Assembly (NCBI GenBank): GCA_900540995.1
Contig: UQHO01000003.1
Span: 2,965-66,964 of the forward strand
From: an uncultured Collinsella sp.
GTDB taxonomy: Bacteria > Actinomycetota > Coriobacteriia > Coriobacteriales > Coriobacteriaceae
Reading direction: 5' to 3'
DNA length: 64,000 bases
Under the pieces are notes generated by a model, which was given only the letters and a program-made list of their open reading frames with translations, was not told the origin of the DNA and made no database searches. Both the position numbers and the translations under genes were made by a program. Position 1 is the stretch's first letter, and each line of letters starts with the position of its first letter. Below, one piece after another: positions 35,324-45,230 of the stretch.

Positions 35324-35446
35324 GCACTCGCCCGGATTGACCCTCCCCTTTTGGGCGCGAGTTCTGGAAAGCACGAATCCAAGACCGAGCCGCTTGGGAA
35401 GTTCCATATAATCGATGTCATTAATATTTCGAAAGGATGGAACAGA

Positions 35447-36433
35447 ATGGCGTTGAGCAAGGCATCATGCACCGGTCGCGGATTGATTCCGGCAATTGGT
35501 GGACATGTGCACCGCATGTTCGATGAGAGTGAAGACGACCTGTTTTCGCTGAGCCTTGACGACGTGATGAATGATCGCCCGTGGACCGCCGACGAACTCA
35601 TGGGCGGCGGGACTCGCCCGTCAAACCCCAATCCCGCACTTGCGCCTAAGACCGCATCTGCGCCGACTCCTGCGCAGTTGGCTGTTTCGACGCCCGCGCC
35701 TACGCCCGCACCCACTTCGGCGCCCACGACCGCTCCCCGCCCCGCAAGCGACCCGTCCGAGACCGCGGCATTTCTCGCTGCAGCGACGCAGGGCAAATCG
35801 GCCGACAGCACCGTTATGTACAGCGCCCAGCAGTTGCCTGTTCCTGCGGCACGCAAGCCTCCGATCGCAAGGCTCGACGAGCCCGTTGCCCATCAGGTTG
35901 CCTACGATTCCTGGGCCACAGCCGATCTGGATGAGACCTCTACCGGCATGCCGGCGCTCGACGTTCCAGTTAACCCGCTTTTTGCCACCAACACGAGCGC
36001 CGTGGACTATGAGGGCGGTGCAGCATATTCCGATTATTCCGATGACTATGCTGGCAATGGTCGCATCGAGACCGAGGGTTATGGCACCGCATCGAGCGAT
36101 TATCTCAACGATCCGTACGCTGCCACGCCTGCACCGGAATATGACCCGGAGGCCGCGTCCGCGCCGGCGTATACCAAAAGCACGGGCGAAGAGCGCTTCG
36201 CCGATTATTACGCCAAGGAAAAGGCGCTGCGTTTCTCGGAATTTCCGCAGGCAGTCAAGGTTGCCTTTATCGCCATTGTCATTGCCCTGCTCGGTGTCAT
36301 TGCGTTTGAGGGATTCCAGCTGTTCCGCGGCCCCACCCAAGCGGAGTCGGAAACCCAGCAAAAAGAGGACGATAACCAGTACCTGGACATCAACACCCTC
36401 AAGGGCGACCCCAACGACGAGGACGACGAGTAG
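35447..36433 (+). CDS. Hypothetical Pro/Ala/Thr-rich protein with a single C-terminal TM helix
   Basis: A short N-terminal domain, a PAPTPAPT low-complexity linker, a DY-rich segment, a VKVAFIAIVIALLGVIAF TM helix and an acidic tail. Confidence 0.5.
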   Translation: MALSKASCTGRGLIPAIGGHVHRMFDESEDDLFSLSLDDVMNDRPWTADELMGGGTRPSNPNPALAPKTASAPTPAQLAVSTPAPTPAPTSAPTTAPRPASDPSETAAFLAAATQGKSADSTVMYSAQQLPVPAARKPPIARLDEPVAHQVAYDSWATADLDETSTGMPALDVPVNPLFATNTSAVDYEGGAAYSDYSDDYAGNGRIETEGYGTASSDYLNDPYAATPAPEYDPEAASAPAYTKSTGEERFADYYAKEKALRFSEFPQAVKVAFIAIVIALLGVIAFEGFQLFRGPTQAESETQQKEDDNQYLDINTLKGDPNDEDDE

Positions 36434-36489
36434 CGAGGGCTGAAGGCGACCACAGGATCCCGCATCCAGCACCGGCTTCTAAGTGCTGT

Positions 36490-36590
36490 TTTGGCATCCA
36501 GCTACACTTTTCCGGATAATTTGCCTATCGAATTTGACACTTTTCCGAAGTTTTAAGGTGCCTATTTCGACACTTTTCCGGATGAAAGCC
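36490..36590. repeat. Three direct repeats of ~26 bp (ttgcctatNNatttgacacttttccg), spaced ~35-38 bp apart
   Basis: acacttttccgg occurs at about 36496, 36535 and 36569. The region is AT-rich. Confidence 0.6.
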
Positions 36591-36798
36591 GAATAATCAC
36601 TTGGGAAACTAACGCCGTTCACGCGTCATTTCGCAGGCGGCGTTTGATTTCCGTCCGTACACGCTGATAGACTTCCTCTTGCCCGCAAGCAGCGGGCGCG
36701 TTTTATCCAGAGTCGGGGTAGAGAGTTGGCTCCACGATCCCGACGCCAACCGGCCAAGAGGCACGGTGGCCCTGCCAATATCGATGAAAGGAGTCCGT

Positions 36799-37551
36799 AT
36801 GGACAATTTCTCCGTGCGCAGTGAGCGCAACTTCCACAACCTGGCAGCCAAGCCAAAACGAATGCATCTTCTGGACAAGCCGAACGGCTATGCCTCGGCC
36901 ATGGTCAAGAGCAGTCTCCCCCACCAGATGCGCTTTACCGTGCAGGCGCTCGAGAAAGAGCTCTACACCGCCGGCGACCCGCACGTACTGCAGATCAAGC
37001 TGCTTGGAGACGACTCGCGCGAGCTGTCTAGCTGGAAGCTGTTTGCCGACGGCACGTGCGTCGCAAGCGGTTCGGGTGACTTTGCCCGCGAGTGCTTCTG
37101 CGAGGGAGCTGAGGTGTTTCTGGACCTGTGTCGCGACGCCGTCGAGACTGCCGAGCTGTGCCAGTGGAGCGAGAGGGAGTACGAGCTGTTGGGTGCCGCG
37201 CGCGGGATTGCGGGGGGGTGTAGGAACAGAAGCCTCATGACGGTGGCCTCAGCTGGAATGACGTATCGCTCGATAAATGATCTCAACAACGTAGCCGATG
37301 CGCCGCATTTCACCTCAAAGGCATTGAGCGATCAGGAGGCGTCCAGCATTTCTTTGATATCCCCAATTGATTGTTCCGAGAAAGTCTCTTCATGTCCTTA
37401 TAATCGCCCTTACGAGAAACGTGGACGAGACAGGCGTCCATATGCCGTCTCTAAACTAACGAGCCGTTCGCGGAAAGAACATCTGGCTAGCATGGGCCAA
37501 AGATATACTGGTATCGCTGCAACAATTATGGAAGATCGGCACCACCAATGA
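36799..37551 (+). CDS. Hypothetical protein, translationally coupled to the downstream surface protein
   Basis: Long ORF starting at an ATG with an AAAGGAG RBS. The 3' third has low GC and may not be coding. Its TGA overlaps the next ATG. Confidence 0.4.
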   Translation: MDNFSVRSERNFHNLAAKPKRMHLLDKPNGYASAMVKSSLPHQMRFTVQALEKELYTAGDPHVLQIKLLGDDSRELSSWKLFADGTCVASGSGDFARECFCEGAEVFLDLCRDAVETAELCQWSEREYELLGAARGIAGGCRNRSLMTVASAGMTYRSINDLNNVADAPHFTSKALSDQEASSISLISPIDCSEKVSSCPYNRPYEKRGRDRRPYAVSKLTSRSRKEHLASMGQRYTGIAATIMEDRHHQ

Positions 37552-39362
37552 CCTCCTTGAAATTCTCCAGGCGCTTCGCGCTTAGCCTGCTCGCCTCGCT
37601 GTCCGCCACCGTAGCGCTTGCTTTGCCCTCAACCGCCCTAGCCGCGTCGGACCCGAACCCGCCCAGCATCTCCAACGTGACGATATCCGCGACGACAGTC
37701 ACGGCCGGCTCCACGCTGCATGTCGGCTATAGCGTCGATGATCCTGACGGGGTACGGTCCGTCACGCCCATAGTCGAAGTCCTTGTCGAAAACGATACCG
37801 GAGACCATGGAATCAGTTCCCGTCTCGCCTTCTCGTCGACCGGCAACACGACCGCGGGCTTCGATATCTCCACCTCCCCGAGCGACCGGCCCTGCAGGTA
37901 CCGGATCATCGGCCTCGGCGTGACCGATAGTCTTGGATGGGTTACCGATGTCTACGACACGACGTATGCCGAGGAGAAGGGGCTCGACTGTCCGACCTTC
38001 ACCACCGACCCCCTCGAGTATGAGGTGACCGAGGGACCCGAGGACCAAAACCCGCCGACCGTGTCCTCCGTGTCGCTCTCGAGCAGGGAGGTCGCAACCG
38101 GTGCCGACCTCCACATCTCTTGGACCGTCTCCGATGCCGACGGCGTTCGCTCCGTTTCCCCCATACTGCGGCAGGGCTGGGAGAATTCGGACGACGGCTG
38201 CTCTGTTTCGTCAGCCTATTATCACGGAGGCTCGTCTATCGACGGGTTTGACCTCACATTCGACAGCAATAGGATCGGAAGGCACAGGCTGATCGGCCTT
38301 TCGGTCACCGATGGCCTAGGGTTCGAGACCGATGTGTACGAGAGTTCCTACGCCAGGGCCAACGGCATTTCGGGCGCGACTTTCTCGGTTGGCGACCCGA
38401 GCGAGCTGTGCTTCGAGGTGACCGGCAGCGCGATCGACCGGAACCCGCCCACGGTCTCGAACGTTTCCATCTCCGCGAAGAGGGTCCCCGTCGGCGGGAT
38501 CCTCCGTATCTATTGCAATGTAGGCGACGCGGACGGCGTAAAGTCTGTCTCCCCGATCCTCGGCGACCCCGGCTATGTCGAGGACCCGAACTCTTTAAAG
38601 ACCCGCAAAACGTTGAGCTGCAGCTACGATGCGGCAAGGGGCTATATCGAAATCGAGTTCCCCACGTCGCTCTCGATGGGCTCGTTTGAAATCCAAGCCC
38701 TCGCGGTCCTCGACAAGACGGGCCACGAGACCTTCGTCTACAGCTCCGCCTACGCCGAGCGTAACGGCAAGACCGGCGTTCAGACCTTTGATGTCGACGA
38801 CGCGGGGGACGTCACCTTCGACGTGACCGCTCCGCTGTATGCCGCCACCAAGGGCGACGGGCAGGCGTATGCAAAGGACGGCGAGGCCGGTCTGACCTTC
38901 CGCTTCAGCGGTCCTCTCGATGAGTTCACGCGTCTCCTCGTGGACGGAACTGAGGTCTCCGCCGAGAACTACACCGCAACCAGGGGCAGCACGATTATCG
39001 AGCTCAGGCCGTCCTACCTGGACACGCTCGCCGGCGGCGGACACACCGTCACGGCCGTCTGGAAGGACGGGACGGCGACCGATGCGTCCTTCACCGTGGA
39101 GGGGAAGGCCCAAGGGGAGCAGGCGGGCGGAAAGACCGACGTAGATTCACCCGGCGACAACAAAAGTGATCCTGCCACTCCTGAAAAGGACGCCGACGAG
39201 GCGGCTACAAAAAAGTCGGGACGCACGACAGCCGATGAACCAAAGCTCGCTGCAACCGGCGACTCCACTTGGATGGCCAGCATCGCATTGGCCATGGCGG
39301 CCACGGCCTGCTTCACGGCAGCGAGAAGGCTTGAGCCCAAGCAGCATAGGCACGAACAGTAG
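37548..39362 (+). CDS. Secreted LAxTG-anchored surface protein with three ~131-aa tandem repeats
   Basis: Signal peptide LLASLSATVALALPSTALA, three repeats beginning D(P/Q/R)NPP(S/T)(I/V)S(N/S)V, and a C-terminal LAATG, hydrophobic segment and basic tail. Confidence 0.75.
   Translation: MTSLKFSRRFALSLLASLSATVALALPSTALAASDPNPPSISNVTISATTVTAGSTLHVGYSVDDPDGVRSVTPIVEVLVENDTGDHGISSRLAFSSTGNTTAGFDISTSPSDRPCRYRIIGLGVTDSLGWVTDVYDTTYAEEKGLDCPTFTTDPLEYEVTEGPEDQNPPTVSSVSLSSREVATGADLHISWTVSDADGVRSVSPILRQGWENSDDGCSVSSAYYHGGSSIDGFDLTFDSNRIGRHRLIGLSVTDGLGFETDVYESSYARANGISGATFSVGDPSELCFEVTGSAIDRNPPTVSNVSISAKRVPVGGILRIYCNVGDADGVKSVSPILGDPGYVEDPNSLKTRKTLSCSYDAARGYIEIEFPTSLSMGSFEIQALAVLDKTGHETFVYSSAYAERNGKTGVQTFDVDDAGDVTFDVTAPLYAATKGDGQAYAKDGEAGLTFRFSGPLDEFTRLLVDGTEVSAENYTATRGSTIIELRPSYLDTLAGGGHTVTAVWKDGTATDASFTVEGKAQGEQAGGKTDVDSPGDNKSDPATPEKDADEAATKKSGRTTADEPKLAATGDSTWMASIALAMAATACFTAARRLEPKQHRHEQ
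37647..38830 (+). repeat. Three tandem ~393-nt coding repeats within the surface protein gene
   Basis: Repeat starts are at about 37647, 38043 and 38436. Confidence 0.6.
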
Positions 39363-39544
39363 CTCAAAGCGAACTCAACTGGGAAGGGCAGATGGATAGC
39401 CGTCCTTCTCTTATAATCAACCCAATCCGCTGAAATGCAATCAGTTAACGAGTTTCGCCAGACGCTCGGCCTCTACCCCGCTCTAGCAAGCCACCAGGCG
39501 ATGAGATAATGCCCACGACTATCAACGTAAGCAAGGAGCGCGCT

Positions 39545-40780
39545 ATGGCAGACAACGAGACCAAACCCTCGGCGAACGACGGCCGAGAGGAGCTCGTGGC
39601 AAAACAGCTCGCATCGACCAAAATCCACCTCGCGCTCACTCAGAAGCGGGTGGACGTCTCCGGCGCCATCAAGCTACCGCTCGAGCGAATTCCCCAACTC
39701 GGCGTGGCGTTCGCCTCGCTCCCCTCGATGTTTCGCACCGTCACCAACACGGTGAGCGTGCCCACGCTGCTCCAGGCGACTGACAAATATGGTAACCCGC
39801 TCGATCCGTCGAAACTCAACACGTTCAAGGACGGCAGCGGTCTCACAGGGGGCTACCGCGACGCCGCCAAGGGCCTTGGGCAGGCGCGCTTCCACGTAGT
39901 CGAGGGCGACATCGCCACGAGCGTCACGCAGGTGCCTTACGATCCAACATCGCTATTCATGGCAGCCGCAATCGCGCAGATAAACCAAAAGCTCGACTCC
40001 ATCCAGGAGTCCGTCGACGAAATGTTCGAGTACATGCGTCAGCGCGACAAGGCCAACATGCGTGGCAACCTCAAGACGCTCGCAGACATCCTCAACGGTT
40101 ACGGCCTCAACTACGGCAACGCCACCTACATGGCAAACGCCCATATGAAGGTGCTCGACATCAAGCAGTCGTCCGCGCAGGACATGGAACTCTTCCGCTC
40201 GCAGGCACAGGCGGATCTGAAAAAGAAAGGGTTCATCGAGGTGCGAGACGGCTTGGGCAGACGCCTCGACAAGGTGCTCGACTACCTCAAAGACTGCCAG
40301 CTCGCCACCTACATCCACGCGTTCTCGCTGTTCCTCGAACCCATGCTCGCCCAGAACTTCGAGCCCGCAAAGCTCGCGGACGCCACTGCGAAGATCGAGG
40401 CTGATTCGATCGCGTACCGCGAGCTCTACACCGACTGCTACAACGCACTCGAAGCGGGGGCTGTCGACACCGTCGATGCGGCACTGCTGGGCGGTATCGC
40501 GTCCGCGGGCAAATTGCTCGGTCACGCCATCGCAAAGACCCCCGTGGGTGACCATACACTCATCGACGAGGCGCTCGAAGGCGCAGGAGAGAGCATCGGA
40601 AAGTTCAACGACAAGCAATCCGAGAAACTCCTCGAAAAGCTCCATCAGGCAAAGACGCCCGACGTCACGCCGTTCAAGCAGAGCGTAAAGGAGATCGACA
40701 CCCTCTACAACCGCCCCGCGCAGATCGCCGTGGACGCCGAGAACGTCTACATCTTGCCTGCCAAGCAGCAGGAAGAGTAA
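39545..40780 (+). CDS. Hypothetical protein (411 aa), no recognisable domain
   Basis: ATG with an AAGGAG RBS. It appears soluble with no TM segment and matches no motif I recognise. Confidence 0.55.
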   Translation: MADNETKPSANDGREELVAKQLASTKIHLALTQKRVDVSGAIKLPLERIPQLGVAFASLPSMFRTVTNTVSVPTLLQATDKYGNPLDPSKLNTFKDGSGLTGGYRDAAKGLGQARFHVVEGDIATSVTQVPYDPTSLFMAAAIAQINQKLDSIQESVDEMFEYMRQRDKANMRGNLKTLADILNGYGLNYGNATYMANAHMKVLDIKQSSAQDMELFRSQAQADLKKKGFIEVRDGLGRRLDKVLDYLKDCQLATYIHAFSLFLEPMLAQNFEPAKLADATAKIEADSIAYRELYTDCYNALEAGAVDTVDAALLGGIASAGKLLGHAIAKTPVGDHTLIDEALEGAGESIGKFNDKQSEKLLEKLHQAKTPDVTPFKQSVKEIDTLYNRPAQIAVDAENVYILPAKQQEE

Positions 40781-40790
40781 CGATACGCGA

Positions 40791-40813
40791 CAGGCACGCG
40801 CCATGCAGACAGC
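40791..40813. repeat. 23-bp direct repeat (left copy) flanking the exonuclease gene
   Basis: caggcacgcgccatgcagacagc. Confidence 0.6.
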
Positions 40814-40821
40814 TAACGCCC

Positions 40822-41556
40822 CTACCTTCCCGCCGCCTTCAGCTTCAGCAGCAGGTCGCCCAGCTCGGGGCACTTGCTAGAGAGGCGTGTCTGGGCCCGC
40901 TCGCCCATCCCCCAACGTTGGCGGACTTCTTGGGCGCGCGGACTCACGTGATAGTCCCCGTCCATCACCTGCTTGAGCAGCTTGGCGGTCACGCGCGCAT
41001 CGGCTAGGGCGCTGTGGGCATGGCCCGTCGACTCGTCAAACTCGATGCCGAACCACGTTGCCGCGTCGCCCAACGAGACGCGCCCGTGGCTGCCAACGTC
41101 CATGATCGAGGTGTAAAACGCCTGCAGGTCGGCCCAGTCCGTAGGAAATGTGGAAAGGTCGATGTGCTTTGCCTGGCACTCGGTCAAAAGCTGCCGACGG
41201 TCCGCACCGCTCCAACAGACCACCTGGGCGGAGTAGCGACCGATCCAATCGCTGAGCCTTTTTATCACCATGTAGAGCAGATCGGCCATCGCGGTGTCCA
41301 CGGCCGATATCCCCGTGAGCTCGCGGACGGGATACGCAACGCCTTCGGTAAATTCCGTCTGCACAAACTGCGAGAACTCGCCCATAACGTTGCCGTGGTA
41401 ATCGAGCTTAACGGCGCCGACCTCGATAATCTCATTGCGCAGCCCACGGCGCTGGCGCTGCTTTGGCACCGGCGCAAACTCAAAGTCCAGCACAATCTGG
41501 CGCGCAAAGTTCGTCGTATCGATAGCCGAGATACACGGCGTCTTTTCAGCTGACAC
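40822..41556 (-). CDS. DEDDh-family 3'-5' exonuclease (DnaQ/epsilon-like domain protein)
   Basis: The VLDFEF, EIIEVGAVKL and HSALADA motifs match ExoI, ExoII and ExoIII. Confidence 0.7.
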   Translation of the reverse strand: MSAEKTPCISAIDTTNFARQIVLDFEFAPVPKQRQRRGLRNEIIEVGAVKLDYHGNVMGEFSQFVQTEFTEGVAYPVRELTGISAVDTAMADLLYMVIKRLSDWIGRYSAQVVCWSGADRRQLLTECQAKHIDLSTFPTDWADLQAFYTSIMDVGSHGRVSLGDAATWFGIEFDESTGHAHSALADARVTAKLLKQVMDGDYHVSPRAQEVRQRWGMGERAQTRLSSKCPELGDLLLKLKAAGR

Positions 41557-41663
41557 GGTTAGGGCCTTTCTCCGTTGCTTGCCGCTTGTTACATAAGCGG
41601 CTACATTGCCGTAAGGTTAGGCGCTCGTGCGGACATGAAATCGGAGCGCAATGCCACGCGCGC

Positions 41664-41686
41664 CAGGCACACGCCATGCAGACGGC
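41664..41686. repeat. 23-bp direct repeat (right copy) flanking the exonuclease gene
   Basis: caggcacacgccatgcagacggc, which matches the left copy at 21 of 23 positions. Confidence 0.6.
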
Positions 41687-42013
41687 CCCAAGAGAGTCGC
41701 CCGCTCTATTCAAATGCATGAAAAAGATTTAGGCCCGGTGACTTGAATCAGCGGTCATCCCGGGCCCATCAGAGCTCGTAGAGCTCTTGGTTGCTTTGGT
41801 CTCGCTCTTCACGGCGCTTATCGAACTTTCCGAGGCACTCAAGCAGCATTCGAAGCATAACAAGTCGCTGCCATTAAGGCACTGACCTCTTGACCAAGCA
41901 ACGGCGCTGCCCAGCTATCACCCTTGGGCTGCCGTCAACTTTATTCTATCCGCGAGCATCTGGTTTACCAAATGGATTTTCGGTAAAGGAAGCACGGCAC
42001 GCCCGCAAAACCA

Positions 42014-43309
42014 CTACGCCCCAAGTGCCGCCATGGGAATCACCGCCACGCCGTCGTCGCGTGTGTAGGCAATGCTCCCCTTTCCAACCACGACCGCCAA
42101 AAACGCCGGCGCGGCATTCTGGGCGGCAGGATTGGAGAGCACTTTCCTCTCCAGCGCCTTGAGATTTCTCGCTCCATCGTCTGCTTTCGCATCACTCAGC
42201 TTGACCTCGATGGCTCCCCAGCGCCCGTCGTGCTCAACGATCAGATCGACCTCAAGGCCCTTCTCATCTCGGAAATAATGGACACTGTTGTCGACACCGC
42301 CGTAGGTGGAAAGGAACACGCGCACGTCGCGCAGGACGAGATTCTCAAAGAGCATCCCCAGCGTTTGCATATCGCCAAGCAGCCGCTCAGGGGTAGCCCC
42401 CAGCAACGCCGCCGCAAGTGACGGGTCACAGAAGTAGCGCTTGGGGCGCACGCGAACGCGGGCCTTCGAGCGCATGGGCGGCTCCCATCCGCACAGGTCC
42501 TCGGTCAGCTTGAGCCTGTTGAAGAGGTCCAAGTACGCAGCGATGGTCCTCTCGTCGGGGCCCGCCTCACCGTACGAGGCGTCCTTTACGAGCGTCTTGT
42601 ACGTGACAGCCTGGCTCTCGTTCATGGCAAGAGCTCGCAAAAGGCCGTGTGCAAGCTCGGGCGACATGCCCTCGTCCAGCACGTTGACGTCGAGCACCGA
42701 GTGCACGTACTGGCTTGCCGTCTCTCGCGCAAGATCTTCCGAAAGCCCAAGATTTGCAGGCCAACCGCCCCTGCAGCACCAGCGGGCGACGTCATCCACC
42801 GTGCTCTCGCGACGCTGAGGGGCAAAATCCTCGCCCTTAAAGAGGCTTGCCAGTGACACGAGCGGCTCGCCGTCGCCCGACTCACACAGGGCCATGGGGC
42901 GCATTGACAGACGGGCGATCCTACCCGTGCCGGAATGACGAACATGGCTGCGCTCCTCGCTTTTGAGCGCGGTCGAGCCCGTGAGCAAAAGTGTCCCCCG
43001 TTCGTTGCCGCTCGCGTCCACGAAACGCCGGGCGGCATCCCAAACCTCGGGCACCTCCTGCCATTCATCGACCAGGTGTGGCGCATCGCCGATGAGCGCC
43101 AGGCTTGGGTCGACCTCTGCCGCCGCACGCTGCGCAGGCTCATCGAGCCTGGAGACGCTCGCCGAGCGAGAGAGCGCCGTCCAGGTCTTGCCGCACCATT
43201 TGGGGCCGTTGATCTCCACACAGCCAAACGCCCGCATAAGGGTGTCGAGGCGCTCCTCTATGAGCCGGGGCCTATATCCCTTTTGGGTCAATCTCTTTGG
43301 TGCATCCAT
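42014..43309 (-). CDS. AAA+ ATPase with C-terminal DUF4143-type domain
   Basis: Walker A GPKWCGKT. The length and layout are typical of the COG1373 family. Confidence 0.7.
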   Translation of the reverse strand: MDAPKRLTQKGYRPRLIEERLDTLMRAFGCVEINGPKWCGKTWTALSRSASVSRLDEPAQRAAAEVDPSLALIGDAPHLVDEWQEVPEVWDAARRFVDASGNERGTLLLTGSTALKSEERSHVRHSGTGRIARLSMRPMALCESGDGEPLVSLASLFKGEDFAPQRRESTVDDVARWCCRGGWPANLGLSEDLARETASQYVHSVLDVNVLDEGMSPELAHGLLRALAMNESQAVTYKTLVKDASYGEAGPDERTIAAYLDLFNRLKLTEDLCGWEPPMRSKARVRVRPKRYFCDPSLAAALLGATPERLLGDMQTLGMLFENLVLRDVRVFLSTYGGVDNSVHYFRDEKGLEVDLIVEHDGRWGAIEVKLSDAKADDGARNLKALERKVLSNPAAQNAAPAFLAVVVGKGSIAYTRDDGVAVIPMAALGA

Positions 43310-43343
43310 AGACGGCCGTCCCTCTCTATCACGCGATATGCGA

Positions 43344-43451
43344 AATTACGCCATTCTCAATGCTGATTTTACGCTACTTTCAATGTAGTTTTTACGCCAT
43401 GACAGATGTAGTTTTTACGCCATTTTCATTGAAGGTTTTACGCTTGGCATC
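43344..43451. repeat. Five tandem ~22-bp iteron-like repeats (consensus tAGTTTTTACGCCATnnTCAaTG)
   Basis: Unit starts are at about 43344, 43363, 43386, 43408 and 43431, in the AT-rich intergenic region between the two ATPase genes. Confidence 0.65.
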
Positions 43452-43494
43452 CTTAGCGCGACCCATTCCGAGCATCACATCAGAGCGTGCTTGG

Positions 43495-44886
43495 TTATCT
43501 CCGCTCGCACATCTCGGCAAACGAAATCAGCTTGGCATCTCCCCTGCTCGCCGCAGCTTCCTGACATCCTTGCGTAAAGCCTCGCTTCGAGAAGATCGCA
43601 TAGCTTTTGTGCTGCCGCCTAAAGAGCTCGCTTCGATGCACGAGCTTTTGCAGCACGTCTTCGCCCACCGGTTCACTGCGCCATTTGCATTCCGCAAACA
43701 GCGCAGTGCCCTCGCCATCGTCAACAATCAAGTCGATTTCTTCCTGCGTATGCGTGCGATTATCCGTCCCCCACCAGCGCCCAACGCTTGCCGGAACCAC
43801 ATCAAGCTGGCCCGCCCGCGCGAGTTCGTACACGTATTGTCTGCATATAAGCTCAAAGACCGTACCCATGTAATCCGATACGTGCGGCTCAATGCGCTCA
43901 TACGCCATCTCGGCCATATCGTTTTGAATCAGCCCGATGTTCTGCGGAACAAACTTGTACCAGAACCTAAACATCTGATCGCTCAGCAGATACACGGCTC
44001 GCTTATTGCTCGTCTCGTTTAGGGGCAGCTCGCGCTCGACAATCCCAAGCGACGCCAGCTTATCCACATAGCTCTTTACGTTGCTCGCAGGGATTCCCGT
44101 AGAGCTCGCAATCTCCGAGATCTTCGAGCGCCCCTGGGCAATTGCTTGCACGATCGCATCATATTGCTCGGGATTGCGGCACTCCTGCAATAGCAGGTTA
44201 CTCGGCTCCTCAAAGAGATAGCCCGTAGGAGTAAGAAAAAGACGTTTGATGTTGTCCTTGAGCGGTGCGGCAGGATCGACTTTCTCGATATATGCAGGAA
44301 TGCCACCCGTCATGCCATAGCAAACTGCAGCGTCTTCGCGACCCATGCTCTGCCACAGGCCGAGGGTCGTCATAAAATCGAGCGGCATGATCTTAAACTG
44401 GGCCGTACGCCTACCGTATAGCGGACTCTCGTAGCCCAACACCTGCTCTTCCATAAACGAAAGCGACGACCCGCACAGGATAAGCATAAGCTTGGTCTCT
44501 TTGTACAAGTGATCGATCTTGTCTTGCAGCAACGAGCTGATCTCGGGATTCGATTGGGCGAGATAAGGATACTCGTCGATCACGACAATCAAACGTTCCG
44601 TACGAGCCATGGTAGCCAATGCATCGAACGCCTCGTCAAAACTACGAAACGACACGCCAGCAACACCAACGGAGCCCGCAAGTATCGCCTGGCTAAAGCC
44701 ATGCAGGTTTGCCTCTGCATTGGTGCGACGAGCTTGAAAGTAAATAGCCTTCTTGCCTTGGATAAACTCTGTGATAAGACGCGTTTTGCCCACGCGACGG
44801 CGGCCGTAAATCACAGGCATCTCAAAGGAGCCCGTGCCATACAGTCGATTGAGCTCGGACATTTCCGCCGTTCTTCCGATAAACAT
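43495..44886 (-). CDS. ATP-binding protein (archaeal-type ATPase with DUF234)
   Basis: Walker A GRRRVGKT. The 463-aa architecture is typical of the PF01637 and DUF234 combination. Confidence 0.7.
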   Translation of the reverse strand: MFIGRTAEMSELNRLYGTGSFEMPVIYGRRRVGKTRLITEFIQGKKAIYFQARRTNAEANLHGFSQAILAGSVGVAGVSFRSFDEAFDALATMARTERLIVVIDEYPYLAQSNPEISSLLQDKIDHLYKETKLMLILCGSSLSFMEEQVLGYESPLYGRRTAQFKIMPLDFMTTLGLWQSMGREDAAVCYGMTGGIPAYIEKVDPAAPLKDNIKRLFLTPTGYLFEEPSNLLLQECRNPEQYDAIVQAIAQGRSKISEIASSTGIPASNVKSYVDKLASLGIVERELPLNETSNKRAVYLLSDQMFRFWYKFVPQNIGLIQNDMAEMAYERIEPHVSDYMGTVFELICRQYVYELARAGQLDVVPASVGRWWGTDNRTHTQEEIDLIVDDGEGTALFAECKWRSEPVGEDVLQKLVHRSELFRRQHKSYAIFSKRGFTQGCQEAAASRGDAKLISFAEMCERR

Positions 44887-44901
44887 AGGGCCATCCTTCC
44901 T

Positions 44902-44957
44902 TTACGTTATAGCTAGCTATATTATACTTTCCTATAATATAGCTAGCTATAACGTAA
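44902..44957. repeat. Perfect AT-rich palindrome (25-bp arms, 6-bp spacer)
   Basis: ttacgttatagctagctatattata-ctttcc-tataatatagctagctataacgtaa, just upstream of the DUF234 ATPase start. Confidence 0.8.
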
Positions 44958-45010
44958 TTCGACAAGCGGCGCACGCAAAAGGGTCGGTACACCACCGCAC
45001 GTGGACCGTT

Positions 45011-45129
45011 CCGGAAAATGTATCCCGTTCTGGAGCCAAAAACTGGGCCGTAGTTTCCGCCAAACATGCCATCCGGAAAGCGTGTCCCGTTCTGAGCGCC
45101 AAATCCGGGACGCAGTTTCCACTCCAAAC
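45011..45129. repeat. Two tandem ~58-bp direct repeats (~75% identity)
   Basis: ccggaaaatgtatcccgttctggagccaaaaactgggccgtagtttccgccaaac, then ccggaaagcgtgtcccgttctgagcgccaaatccgggacgcagtttccactccaaac. Confidence 0.55.
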
Positions 45130-45230
45130 AAAGGGCCCCGGCTCGCGATGGAGCCGGGGCCAAAGGCGCAGCGTATGTAGTTGATGTTGAGCGCGAACAG
45201 CTCGTCAGCAATGGCCGTCCGCGCCCTACC

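Follow-up and report, generated by a model that had tools for sequence, protein, structure and literature searches.

The subject of this work is a block of genes at 35-45 kb of a 64,000-nucleotide stretch of an uncultured Collinsella sp. genome (assembly GCA_900540995.1, contig UQHO01000003.1; hereafter the window, with positions counted from its first letter; GC content 58-66%). The left flank of the block encodes an amidohydrolase, an M20 peptidase, a pyridoxal-phosphate enzyme and a YheO-like regulator, and the right flank a xanthine-dehydrogenase-type molybdoenzyme (xdh), a YgfK-like oxidoreductase, an amidohydrolase and a permease, both flanks belonging to a cluster of the purine-degradation, selenium-dependent-hydroxylase type. 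The block itself contained open reading frames (ORFs) for a Pro-rich membrane protein, a hypothetical protein, an LAATG surface protein, a 411-aa protein, a DEDDh exonuclease and two ATPases with the domain pairs AAA_14+DUF4143 and ATPase_2+DUF234, all of them present as listed by a first-pass annotation made from the sequence alone. The AT-richer dips reported at 36.5, 37.3, 43.4 and 44.9 kb were likewise recovered, and every repeat on the list exceeded chance expectation, several of them with revised borders. Two features had been missed, an S-adenosylmethionine riboswitch (SAM-I; 36700-36790) and a strain-variable poly-G tract (37212-37218). The earlier observations were thus largely right and partly corrected, and the interpretation attached to them was partly right.

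Backbone genes and variable slots

A scan of GTDB species genomes for the exonuclease gave 576 relatives, and the proteins of the window were mapped onto the best 80 of these loci. Gene order was constant wherever the contig reached: YheO regulator, Pro-rich protein, a 140-aa gene (h140), slot B, exonuclease, slot A and xdh. Slot A, which extends from xdh to the start of the exonuclease gene, held optional single-gene cassettes separated by arrays of a 61-bp unit; slot B, of strain-variable content, extends from the exonuclease stop codon to the 3' end of the 140-aa gene. The former was complete in 48 loci and the latter in 44. Three backbone genes (the Pro-rich gene, the riboswitch gene and the exonuclease gene), which interrupt the purine-degradation cluster of the Collinsella aerofaciens group, were present at every locus with coverage of them, the Pro-rich gene being seen in all loci that covered its side (44 fully covered, 2 partial).

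Both ATPase genes were found in 26 of the 48 complete slot-A loci, the DUF234 gene only in 12, the DUF4143 gene only in 4 and neither in 6. Slot B was empty (about 950 bp) in 8/44 complete loci, held the genes for the 411-aa protein and a 604-aa surface protein as a pair in 19/44, and combined the 411-aa gene with a C5-methylase and a 603-aa protein in 3/44. A BnzB-like gene with GmrSD, several different type I restriction-modification (R-M) systems, a type II R-M system, a type III Res-like gene and more were found in the other complete loci, and in one locus (L011) a Gabija-like pair of OLD-TOPRIM and UvrD genes adjoined the 411-aa gene.

The same variability was displayed by close relatives. 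The exact DUF234 protein, looked up in public assemblies, was found on ten contigs that shared 97-100% DNA identity with the window from the permease through xdh, DUF234, DUF4143 and the exonuclease. Conspecific homology ended exactly at the exonuclease stop codon (window 40821/40822), with a second break near 37224/36553, and four sets of cargo were found beyond the stop codon: (i) the 411-aa, 604-aa and hypothetical (h250) proteins of the window, (ii) the 411-aa protein with an SNF2 helicase, a DUF4391 protein and a methylase, (iii) a type I R-M system whose two hsdS genes form a shufflon with an integrase, and (iv) ORFs of 438 and 322 aa, which cluster with the BnzB-like family, together with GmrSD. 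Integrases in other strains belonged to hsdS shufflons. Neither an integrase nor a transposase was seen among the segment ORFs scanned, as the first-pass annotation had also noted, and no att-type direct repeats pairing the 35.3-kb and 45.2-kb ends were found.

Conserved flanks thus enclosed cargo that differed among strains, empty state included, which is the configuration of a hotspot. This cargo was enriched in systems recognised as defensive by PADLOC and Pfam, namely type I methyltransferase (MTase), S and restriction endonuclease genes, type II C5-MTase, BnzB and GmrSD, and also OLD-TOPRIM with UvrD. The earlier suggestion of a defence locus stood in so far as strains carry R-M, GmrSD, BnzB-like, Gabija-like and SNF2/DUF4391/MTase genes at the same place, and failed in so far as a system of the hypothetical protein, the exonuclease and the two ATPases was not supported. 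Because the backbone order is constant and the two separate slots have independent contents, the 35-45 kb segment is not one inserted element, and the single accessory unit of about 10 kb that had been proposed breaks up into a conserved backbone and two independent slots with internal breakpoints.

Upstream elements of the two ATPase genes

The DUF4143 protein (431 aa, 42014-43309, minus strand) consists of an AAA+ domain (AAA_14), a winged helix and a PD-(D/E)xK nuclease domain (DUF4143), and carries the conserved motifs GxxGKT, DEWQ and ExD...ExK. It matched the PADLOC candidate PDC-S01 over its full length (PDLC04790, 9.8e-63, residues 11-429 of 431; PF13173 and PF13635). The DUF234 protein (463 aa, 43495-44886, minus strand), with an AAA+ domain (ATPase_2), a winged helix and a DUF234/Mrr-like nuclease domain, matched the candidate PDC-S27, also full length (PDLC04984, 3.7e-62, residues 2-428 of 463; PF01637 and PF03008, with a weak match to Mrr_cat). 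The HTH_IclR, TrmB and HTH_24 families matched its residues 245-286, and its profile found the archaeal AAA+ structures 2qen and 2fna as well as the AAA+ domain of TnsC. Both ATPase families were therefore already catalogued by PADLOC as single-gene candidates, and the label of an undescribed system could not be kept.

A 23-bp direct-repeat array of 4.3 copies (43346-43443, minus strand, with the TTTTACGCC core on the plus strand) precedes the DUF4143 start (43309) by 37 nt. It had been annotated as five 22-bp iterons at 43344-43451, of which the repeats were real and the unit length, copy number and borders were not. When the 19-nt unit pattern was searched with up to 3 mismatches, 3 matches were obtained, all within the array, against 0 in 100 shuffles.

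Autocorrelation was computed, against shuffles, on the 250 bp upstream of the DUF4143 start in the window and in seven plasmid homologues of 26-41% identity, from C. aerofaciens (two plasmids), Bacteroides ovatus, B. uniformis, Prosthecochloris, Actinomyces oris and Lentilactobacillus hilgardii. The top lag was 23 and the second 46 in 8/8 of these sequences, which come from Actinomycetota, Bacteroidota, Chlorobiota and Bacillota (P<=0.005 in seven, 0.03 in one). Among 25 non-duplicate homologues from IMG/VR (35-41% identical), lag 23 ranked first in 21, lag 46 in three and another lag in one, and downstream and coding controls of these homologues displayed no lag-23 preference. Taken together, an array of 23-bp period was found upstream of 29/33 DUF4143 homologues from several phyla, and three more had a period of 46. 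Arrays delineated by Tandem Repeats Finder (TRF) had 2.2-7.7 copies and ended 35-90 nt before the start codon. Period and position were conserved, while the unit sequences varied, many with a CGCCA/GCCAA-like core; an orthologue about 70% identical carried a 3.5x23 array with a different unit sequence. Judged from these upstream regions, the array is a family-typical cis element of DUF4143 genes.

Within Collinsella, DUF4143-only strains kept the 23-bp array without the palindrome described below, and partial array copies persisted in some strains that lack the gene. Two DUF4143 orthologues on other metagenome contigs (69% and 75% identical) were solitary, one lying between efp and an isochorismatase gene and the other after a two-component system. 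On the B. uniformis plasmid pBUN1 (L182, 1474-3356), a small convergent gene with the annotation 3'-5' exonuclease comes after the DUF4143 gene, a second instance of the two side by side.

In some strains another DUF4143-type ATPase, divergent at 20% identity, is encoded between the Pro-rich gene and the riboswitch/h140 (L015, 5565-7050). Four boxes at 33-bp spacing lie directly upstream of this paralogue, and the autocorrelation of L015 peaked at lag 33. The window keeps three such 14-nt boxes (ACACTTTTCCGGAT; ACACTTTTCCG) at 33-bp spacing between the Pro-rich gene and the riboswitch (36504-36583), though the gene of the divergent paralogue is absent; they had been noted as ~26-bp repeats at 36490-36590, which was right as to their presence and not as to their unit. 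No recurrence of the CCGGAAAAGTGT boxes was seen elsewhere in the window.

The element upstream of the DUF234 gene is of another kind. A perfect palindrome with 25-nt arms, a 6-nt loop and TATAGCTAGCTATA boxes (44902-44957), as originally annotated, occupies the stretch from 16 to 71 nt before the DUF234 start (44886); its inverted-repeat score was 25, against a shuffle maximum of 9, and a TATAAT within it, on the gene strand, precedes the ATG by 35 nt. DUF234-only Collinsella strains kept the palindrome, and one locus (L098) retained it without a detectable gene. Upstream regions were compared for the window with 7 plasmid homologues and for 31 IMG/VR homologues. AT-rich palindromes were found 12-75 nt before the start of DUF234 homologues, lag 15 ranked on top in 5/8 sequences of the first set and in 11/31 of the second, and an inverted-repeat score of at least 10 was reached by 10/31 DUF234 upstream regions against 0/31 coding controls. 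No lag-23 peak was found in the DUF234 set. The DUF234 gene region had a GC content of 50-55%, against 62-66% in the neighbouring genes, which suggests a more recent acquisition than that of the DUF4143 gene.

Repeats and genes of the slots

Slot A of the window contains two imperfect-palindrome units of about 61-62 bp (45004-45123, minus strand), which are absent elsewhere in the window and had been recognised as tandem repeats, with a unit of ~58 bp that was too short. Inverted copies of a ~16-nt motif with TTTCCGG at its end make up the unit, which gave 381 matches in the 80 GTDB loci; in the 30 full-length loci, all matches lay between xdh and the exonuclease. In other strains, tandem arrays of 2-7 units flank each slot-A cassette, be it a 332-aa ORF, the DUF234 gene or a SIMPL gene (e.g., L040, 7100-7482). 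These units could be a recombination substrate for the gain and loss of cassettes, or sites for a regulator; dispersed elements of the repetitive extragenic palindromic type were considered and rejected, the unit being confined to slot A.

The 332-aa ORF, which had no family match, is an optional cassette between xdh and the DUF234 gene in several loci (L020, L034, L040 and others), with 61-bp arrays in both orientations on either side. To the right, the variable region is bounded by the intrinsic terminator of the xanthine-dehydrogenase-type gene (45134-45161, minus strand), an 11-bp stem with 10 GC pairs followed by a T-run. In nine loci, slot A was bordered not by xdh but by another gene set with a YheO paralogue (about 30% identical), so in some Collinsella lineages the hotspot is not embedded in the purine cluster. 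Draft Collinsella assemblies often ended a few hundred bases upstream of the exonuclease gene, as in nine of the loci, which would fit a slot A rich in repeats or heterogeneous within samples.

The DEDDh 3'-5' exonuclease (KapD-like, 244 aa, 40822-41556, minus strand) is the conserved anchor between both slots. It matched RNase_T (PF00929, 8.9e-10), with a DxE motif (DFE) at residue 24 and an Hx4D motif (HSALAD) at residue 181, and the KapD model at 2.7e-21, below the equivalog cut-off. The exonucleases of the best 80 loci came from Collinsella (including C. aerofaciens isolates) or Coriobacteriaceae and were 94-100% identical, a conservation by which the gene behaves like a housekeeping-type gene. 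The 23-bp repeats said to bracket it do bracket it, in the form of a 28-nt direct repeat with 89% identity between its copies: copy a (40786-40813) travels with the 3' end of the 411-aa gene, and copy b (41659-41686) lies about 100 nt upstream of the exonuclease start. As a mark of cassette boundaries this repeat was rejected, copy a being part of the 411 cassette and copy b of the region upstream of the exonuclease.

The 411-aa protein (39545-40780, plus strand) belongs to a widespread unannotated family of 743 clusters at 50% identity, typically of about 400 aa. No Pfam match was obtained for 63 members of the family and no viral copies in an IMG/VR scan; a PDB profile search returned FliJ only, which was judged a chance match. 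In the window, nothing usable was found in Pfam, NCBIfam, PADLOC or PHROGs for the 411-aa protein, nor for the Pro-rich, h250 and 604-aa proteins. The Collinsella gene lies directly beside the exonuclease gene, convergent in all but a few assemblies. In six loci, the diverged C-terminal half of a second exonuclease (aa 111-231, 57-80% identical) was present on the far side of the 411-aa gene and, since the 28-nt copy is always found with the 3' end of this gene, the two together suggest that the 411-aa gene brought along an exonuclease allele of its own. On contigs of 37-52% GC, homologues with 58-69% identity adjoined type I R-M systems or LmuB-like ATPases. These neighbours point to a defence-island association, and the 411-aa family is a candidate new defence-island family.

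The predicted model of the 411-aa protein (predicted local distance difference test, pLDDT, 80) shows a small N-terminal beta subdomain, a long helical bundle and a C-terminal hairpin. Its best non-designed Foldseek matches were AhlB, ClyA and SmhB, at E-values of at least 0.06, with designed bundles scoring equally well or better. The protein has no signal peptide, transmembrane (TM) segment or strongly hydrophobic segment. As the E-values were not significant and no strongly hydrophobic segment was present, a membrane-active effector is only a lead.

On the other side of slot B, the SAM-I riboswitch aptamer (RF00162, 36700-36790, plus strand) scored 45.4 bits against a gathering score of 44.4 (E 6.7e-8). 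Its minimum-free-energy fold reproduced P1-P3 (z -2.9), with a shortened P4, and the 3' strand of P1 with its extension covers the Shine-Dalgarno sequence of the ORF starting at 36799. This ORF, h250 (36799-37551, plus strand), is a Collinsella-only 140-aa gene read through into a cassette-encoded extension; its homologues have a canonical length of 140 aa and no family match, and the ORF is split in many strains. The poly-G tract, G7 in the window (37212-37218, plus strand), lies at the cassette junction, where the 140-aa gene has its 3' end, and sets the reading frame. With G7 or G10 the gene is read through to a product of 250 aa, which ends in a stop codon overlapping the first codon of the 604-aa gene (ATGA), with G5 or G8 translation stops at a TAG at 37221-37223, and with G6 or G9 the product has about 147 aa. 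Tract length ranged from G5 to G10 among loci, and four loci with an identical 411-aa protein (L015-L018) had G7, G9, G7 and G10, with ORFs of 250, 147, 250 and 251 aa.

The 604-aa protein (37548-39362, plus strand), the cassette gene next to this tract, is a sortase-anchored surface protein with three repeats of about 140 aa, a signal-peptide-like hydrophobic stretch at residues 10-32, an LAATG-DSTWMASIALAMAATACFTAARR motif, and a TM segment with a basic tail, in agreement with the LAxTG surface protein with three repeats first annotated. The poly-G tract has the hallmarks of a contingency locus for this protein, on whose expression it would act through the ATGA overlap. At the left end of the segment, the backbone gene for the Pro-rich single-pass membrane protein (35447-36433, plus strand; 328 aa from this ATG) adjoins that of the YheO-like regulator. 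Its single TM segment was found at residues 263-295 of 328, and the protein, first annotated as tail-anchored, is not strictly so.

Interpretation and relation to known systems

Taken as a whole, the locus is probably a chromosomal defence-island hotspot on a conserved backbone, neither a single element nor a multi-gene system. In the proposed mechanism, each ATPase-nuclease would bind its own upstream repeats through the winged helix, DUF4143 protomers in a 23-bp register, analogous to Orc1/Cdc6 on origin recognition boxes (ORB), and DUF234 as a dimer or tetramer on the palindrome. With winged-helix domains in both ATPases, the likeliest role of the elements may be self-binding and autoregulation, by which a potentially toxic nuclease would be kept tightly autorepressed. 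Defence would then proceed by ATP-driven assembly on foreign DNA and cleavage by the PD-(D/E)xK domain. Cassettes may be turned over by homologous recombination through the conserved flanks and the repeat arrays, without an integrase. The observations themselves establish the arrangement of the locus, its variability, the families of its proteins and the constancy of repeat period and position across phyla.

Both families have been published as single-gene 'guilt-by-embedding' candidates, with an ATPase fused to PD-(D/E)XK, and are very abundant, with about 39,000 PADLOC hits for PDC-S01 and 8,000 for PDC-S27; PDC-S01 (DUF4143) has been reported to rank fourth in frequency among prokaryotic defence candidates. 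The wider proposal is that PDC-S01 proteins are sequence-specific AAA+/winged-helix/nuclease proteins acting on a cognate 23-bp array and PDC-S27 proteins likewise on palindromic boxes, that the array is a co-evolving autorepression, licensing or 'self' site, and that the 411-aa family is an undescribed defence-island gene. As a joint claim it is put forward tentatively, with slightly less confidence than doubt. What the locus chiefly contributes is the cross-phylum pattern of the PDC-S01 array, the PDC-S27 palindrome pattern, the Collinsella hotspot and the 411-aa family, the two ATPase families themselves being already catalogued. No description of these DUF4143 and DUF234 cis elements was found in the open-access papers searched, only four of which mention either family, and one may exist elsewhere.

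Several points weigh against the hotspot reading and its mechanism. The defence role of both ATPase families has candidate status, validation being called pending for most PDCs, and the window's own slot-B genes (411 and 604 aa) have no known defence function. Binding of the ATPases to their upstream repeats is what we infer from domains and position; likewise, the recombination route is proposed because repeats are there and integrases are not. About one in eight DUF4143 homologues lacked a clear lag-23 peak, and 13/33 arrays were too degenerate for TRF. The homologues were sampled from plasmid and viral-contig collections and represent one DUF4143 subfamily (26-41% identity), the divergent paralogue being spaced at 33 bp, and the palindrome or 15-bp pattern was seen in about a third to a half of the DUF234 homologues. 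On two C. aerofaciens plasmids, a gene for a 62-73-aa helix-turn-helix protein lies just upstream of the array and the DUF4143 gene (L179, 2650-3007; L180, 2615-2992), and its product is a possible alternative binder.

Slot B of the window may alternatively be no defence cargo but a surface-variation module, in which a phase-variable adhesin, sortase-anchored and preceded by a SAM riboswitch, is served by the 411-aa protein as a helper; the module would differ between strains through host or phage-receptor selection. In favour are the poly-G tract, which varies in length between near-identical strains and determines in which frame the ORF overlapping the start of the LAATG gene is read, the signal peptide and sortase motif of the 604-aa protein, and the riboswitch upstream. 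The 411-aa gene, however, also occurs without the 604-aa gene, beside Gabija-like, C5-MTase or SNF2/MTase cassettes, its low-GC homologues keep the company of R-M and LmuB-like genes, and its product lacks a signal peptide or TM segment. The module is accordingly regarded as possible, with doubt clearly prevailing.

Replication iterons, as at the origin of a plasmid or satellite, or the end of a transposon-like element are another reading of the 23-bp array, on which DUF4143 would be a selfish mobile gene for a nuclease and not a defence gene. Unit length and tandem layout resemble those of iterons, array and gene behave as a presence/absence unit, DUF4143 genes occur singly in unrelated neighbourhoods, on plasmids and on viral contigs, and the AAA+ domains resemble TnsC and ORC/Cdc6. 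Yet no Rep gene lies nearby (the flanking genes being DUF234 and DUF4143 only), blastn of the array against 72,556 PLSDB records gave no match, and the unit was found nowhere else in the window, without an inverted copy downstream of the DUF4143 gene, so the array is neither a plasmid origin nor one of paired element ends. The same 23-bp period moreover accompanied DUF4143 genes whether these were chromosomal (the window), plasmid-borne or from IMG/VR viral contigs, and in all homologues the arrays were on the promoter side only, for which an operator is a better fit than an origin or end. The iteron explanation is thus unlikely.

It is very unlikely that the exonuclease and the two ATPases, with or without the 411-aa protein, form one multi-gene defence or conflict system, as had also been proposed. 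The three genes are co-oriented and adjacent in the window and on all ten DUF234-identical contigs, the exonuclease gave weak PADLOC matches to Cas-associated DEDDh and PDC-S48, and a 3'-5' exonuclease also accompanies DUF4143 on pBUN1. Against this, all four combinations of ATPase presence and absence occurred beside an unchanged, housekeeping-like exonuclease, each ATPase gene has its own upstream element, with intergenic gaps between the genes, both DUF4143 orthologues looked up elsewhere were solitary, the 411-aa gene is absent from many strains that keep the trio, and PADLOC models both ATPases as single-gene candidates. Highly improbable, and largely refuted, is a decayed integrated element (island, integrative and conjugative element or prophage remnant) inserted once between the halves of the metabolic cluster, which would account for the interruption of the cluster, the AT-rich stretches, the low-GC DUF234 gene and the repeats at several junctions, but is contradicted by the lack of integrase, transposase and att-type duplication, by backbone genes present in every Collinsella locus covering them, by variability confined to two independent slots, and by breakpoints inside the block (40821 and ~37224) rather than at its ends.

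If the self-binding mechanism proposed for the hotspot ATPases is true, it would give a first mechanistic handle on the PDC-S01 and PDC-S27 families. A cis element fixed in period and position across phyla, and free in sequence, leads to a testable hypothesis of self-binding and autoregulation by an Orc1/Cdc6-like AAA+-winged-helix nuclease. The 23-bp period may be used as an annotation signature for the DUF4143 family, and this hallmark accounts for 'iterons' that would have passed for the origin of a plasmid. In addition, a defence hotspot is now on record for Collinsella, a genus abundant in the human gut, and the locus displays an unusual string of SAM riboswitch, poly-G tract and sortase-anchored surface protein.

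Contingency loci with homopolymer tracts mediate phase variation by slipped-strand mispairing, for example in Neisseria, Haemophilus and Campylobacter. The Collinsella tract resembles them as a G-run inside an ORF, of G5-G10 among near-identical strains, with one frame in three giving the long product. It differs in that it lies where a riboswitch-controlled gene ends at a cassette junction, and is known solely from the comparison of strains. For the 411-aa protein, the lead is given by the alpha-helical pore-forming effectors JukB (of the Juk system), ClyA/AhlB/SmhB and domain I of Cry toxins, to which, however, sequence identity is about 10%, the matches are not significant and a strongly hydrophobic segment is missing; no JukA-like partner was identified adjoining the 411-aa gene in the loci examined.

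The window ATPases share with the PADLOC candidates PDC-S01 and PDC-S27 the ATPase-then-PD-(D/E)xK order and the single-gene unit, while a conserved upstream cis element is apparently not part of their published description. Unlike Orc1/Cdc6 on ORB and the autoregulating iteron-binding initiators of Rep/DnaA type, the DUF4143 protein has a C-terminal PD-(D/E)xK nuclease; its array is on the promoter side only and has no plasmid match. The resemblance is architectural only. The locus as a whole is like the defence-island hotspots of the E. coli pan-genome (PMC10121019) in its fixed site, conserved flanks and variable cargo dominated by R-M and anti-phage genes, with some sites empty. Unlike these, the Collinsella hotspot lies in Coriobacteriia, nested in a purine-degradation cluster, is free of mobile-element genes in the window, and has two slots around a conserved exonuclease, one of them partitioned by locus-specific 61-bp arrays.

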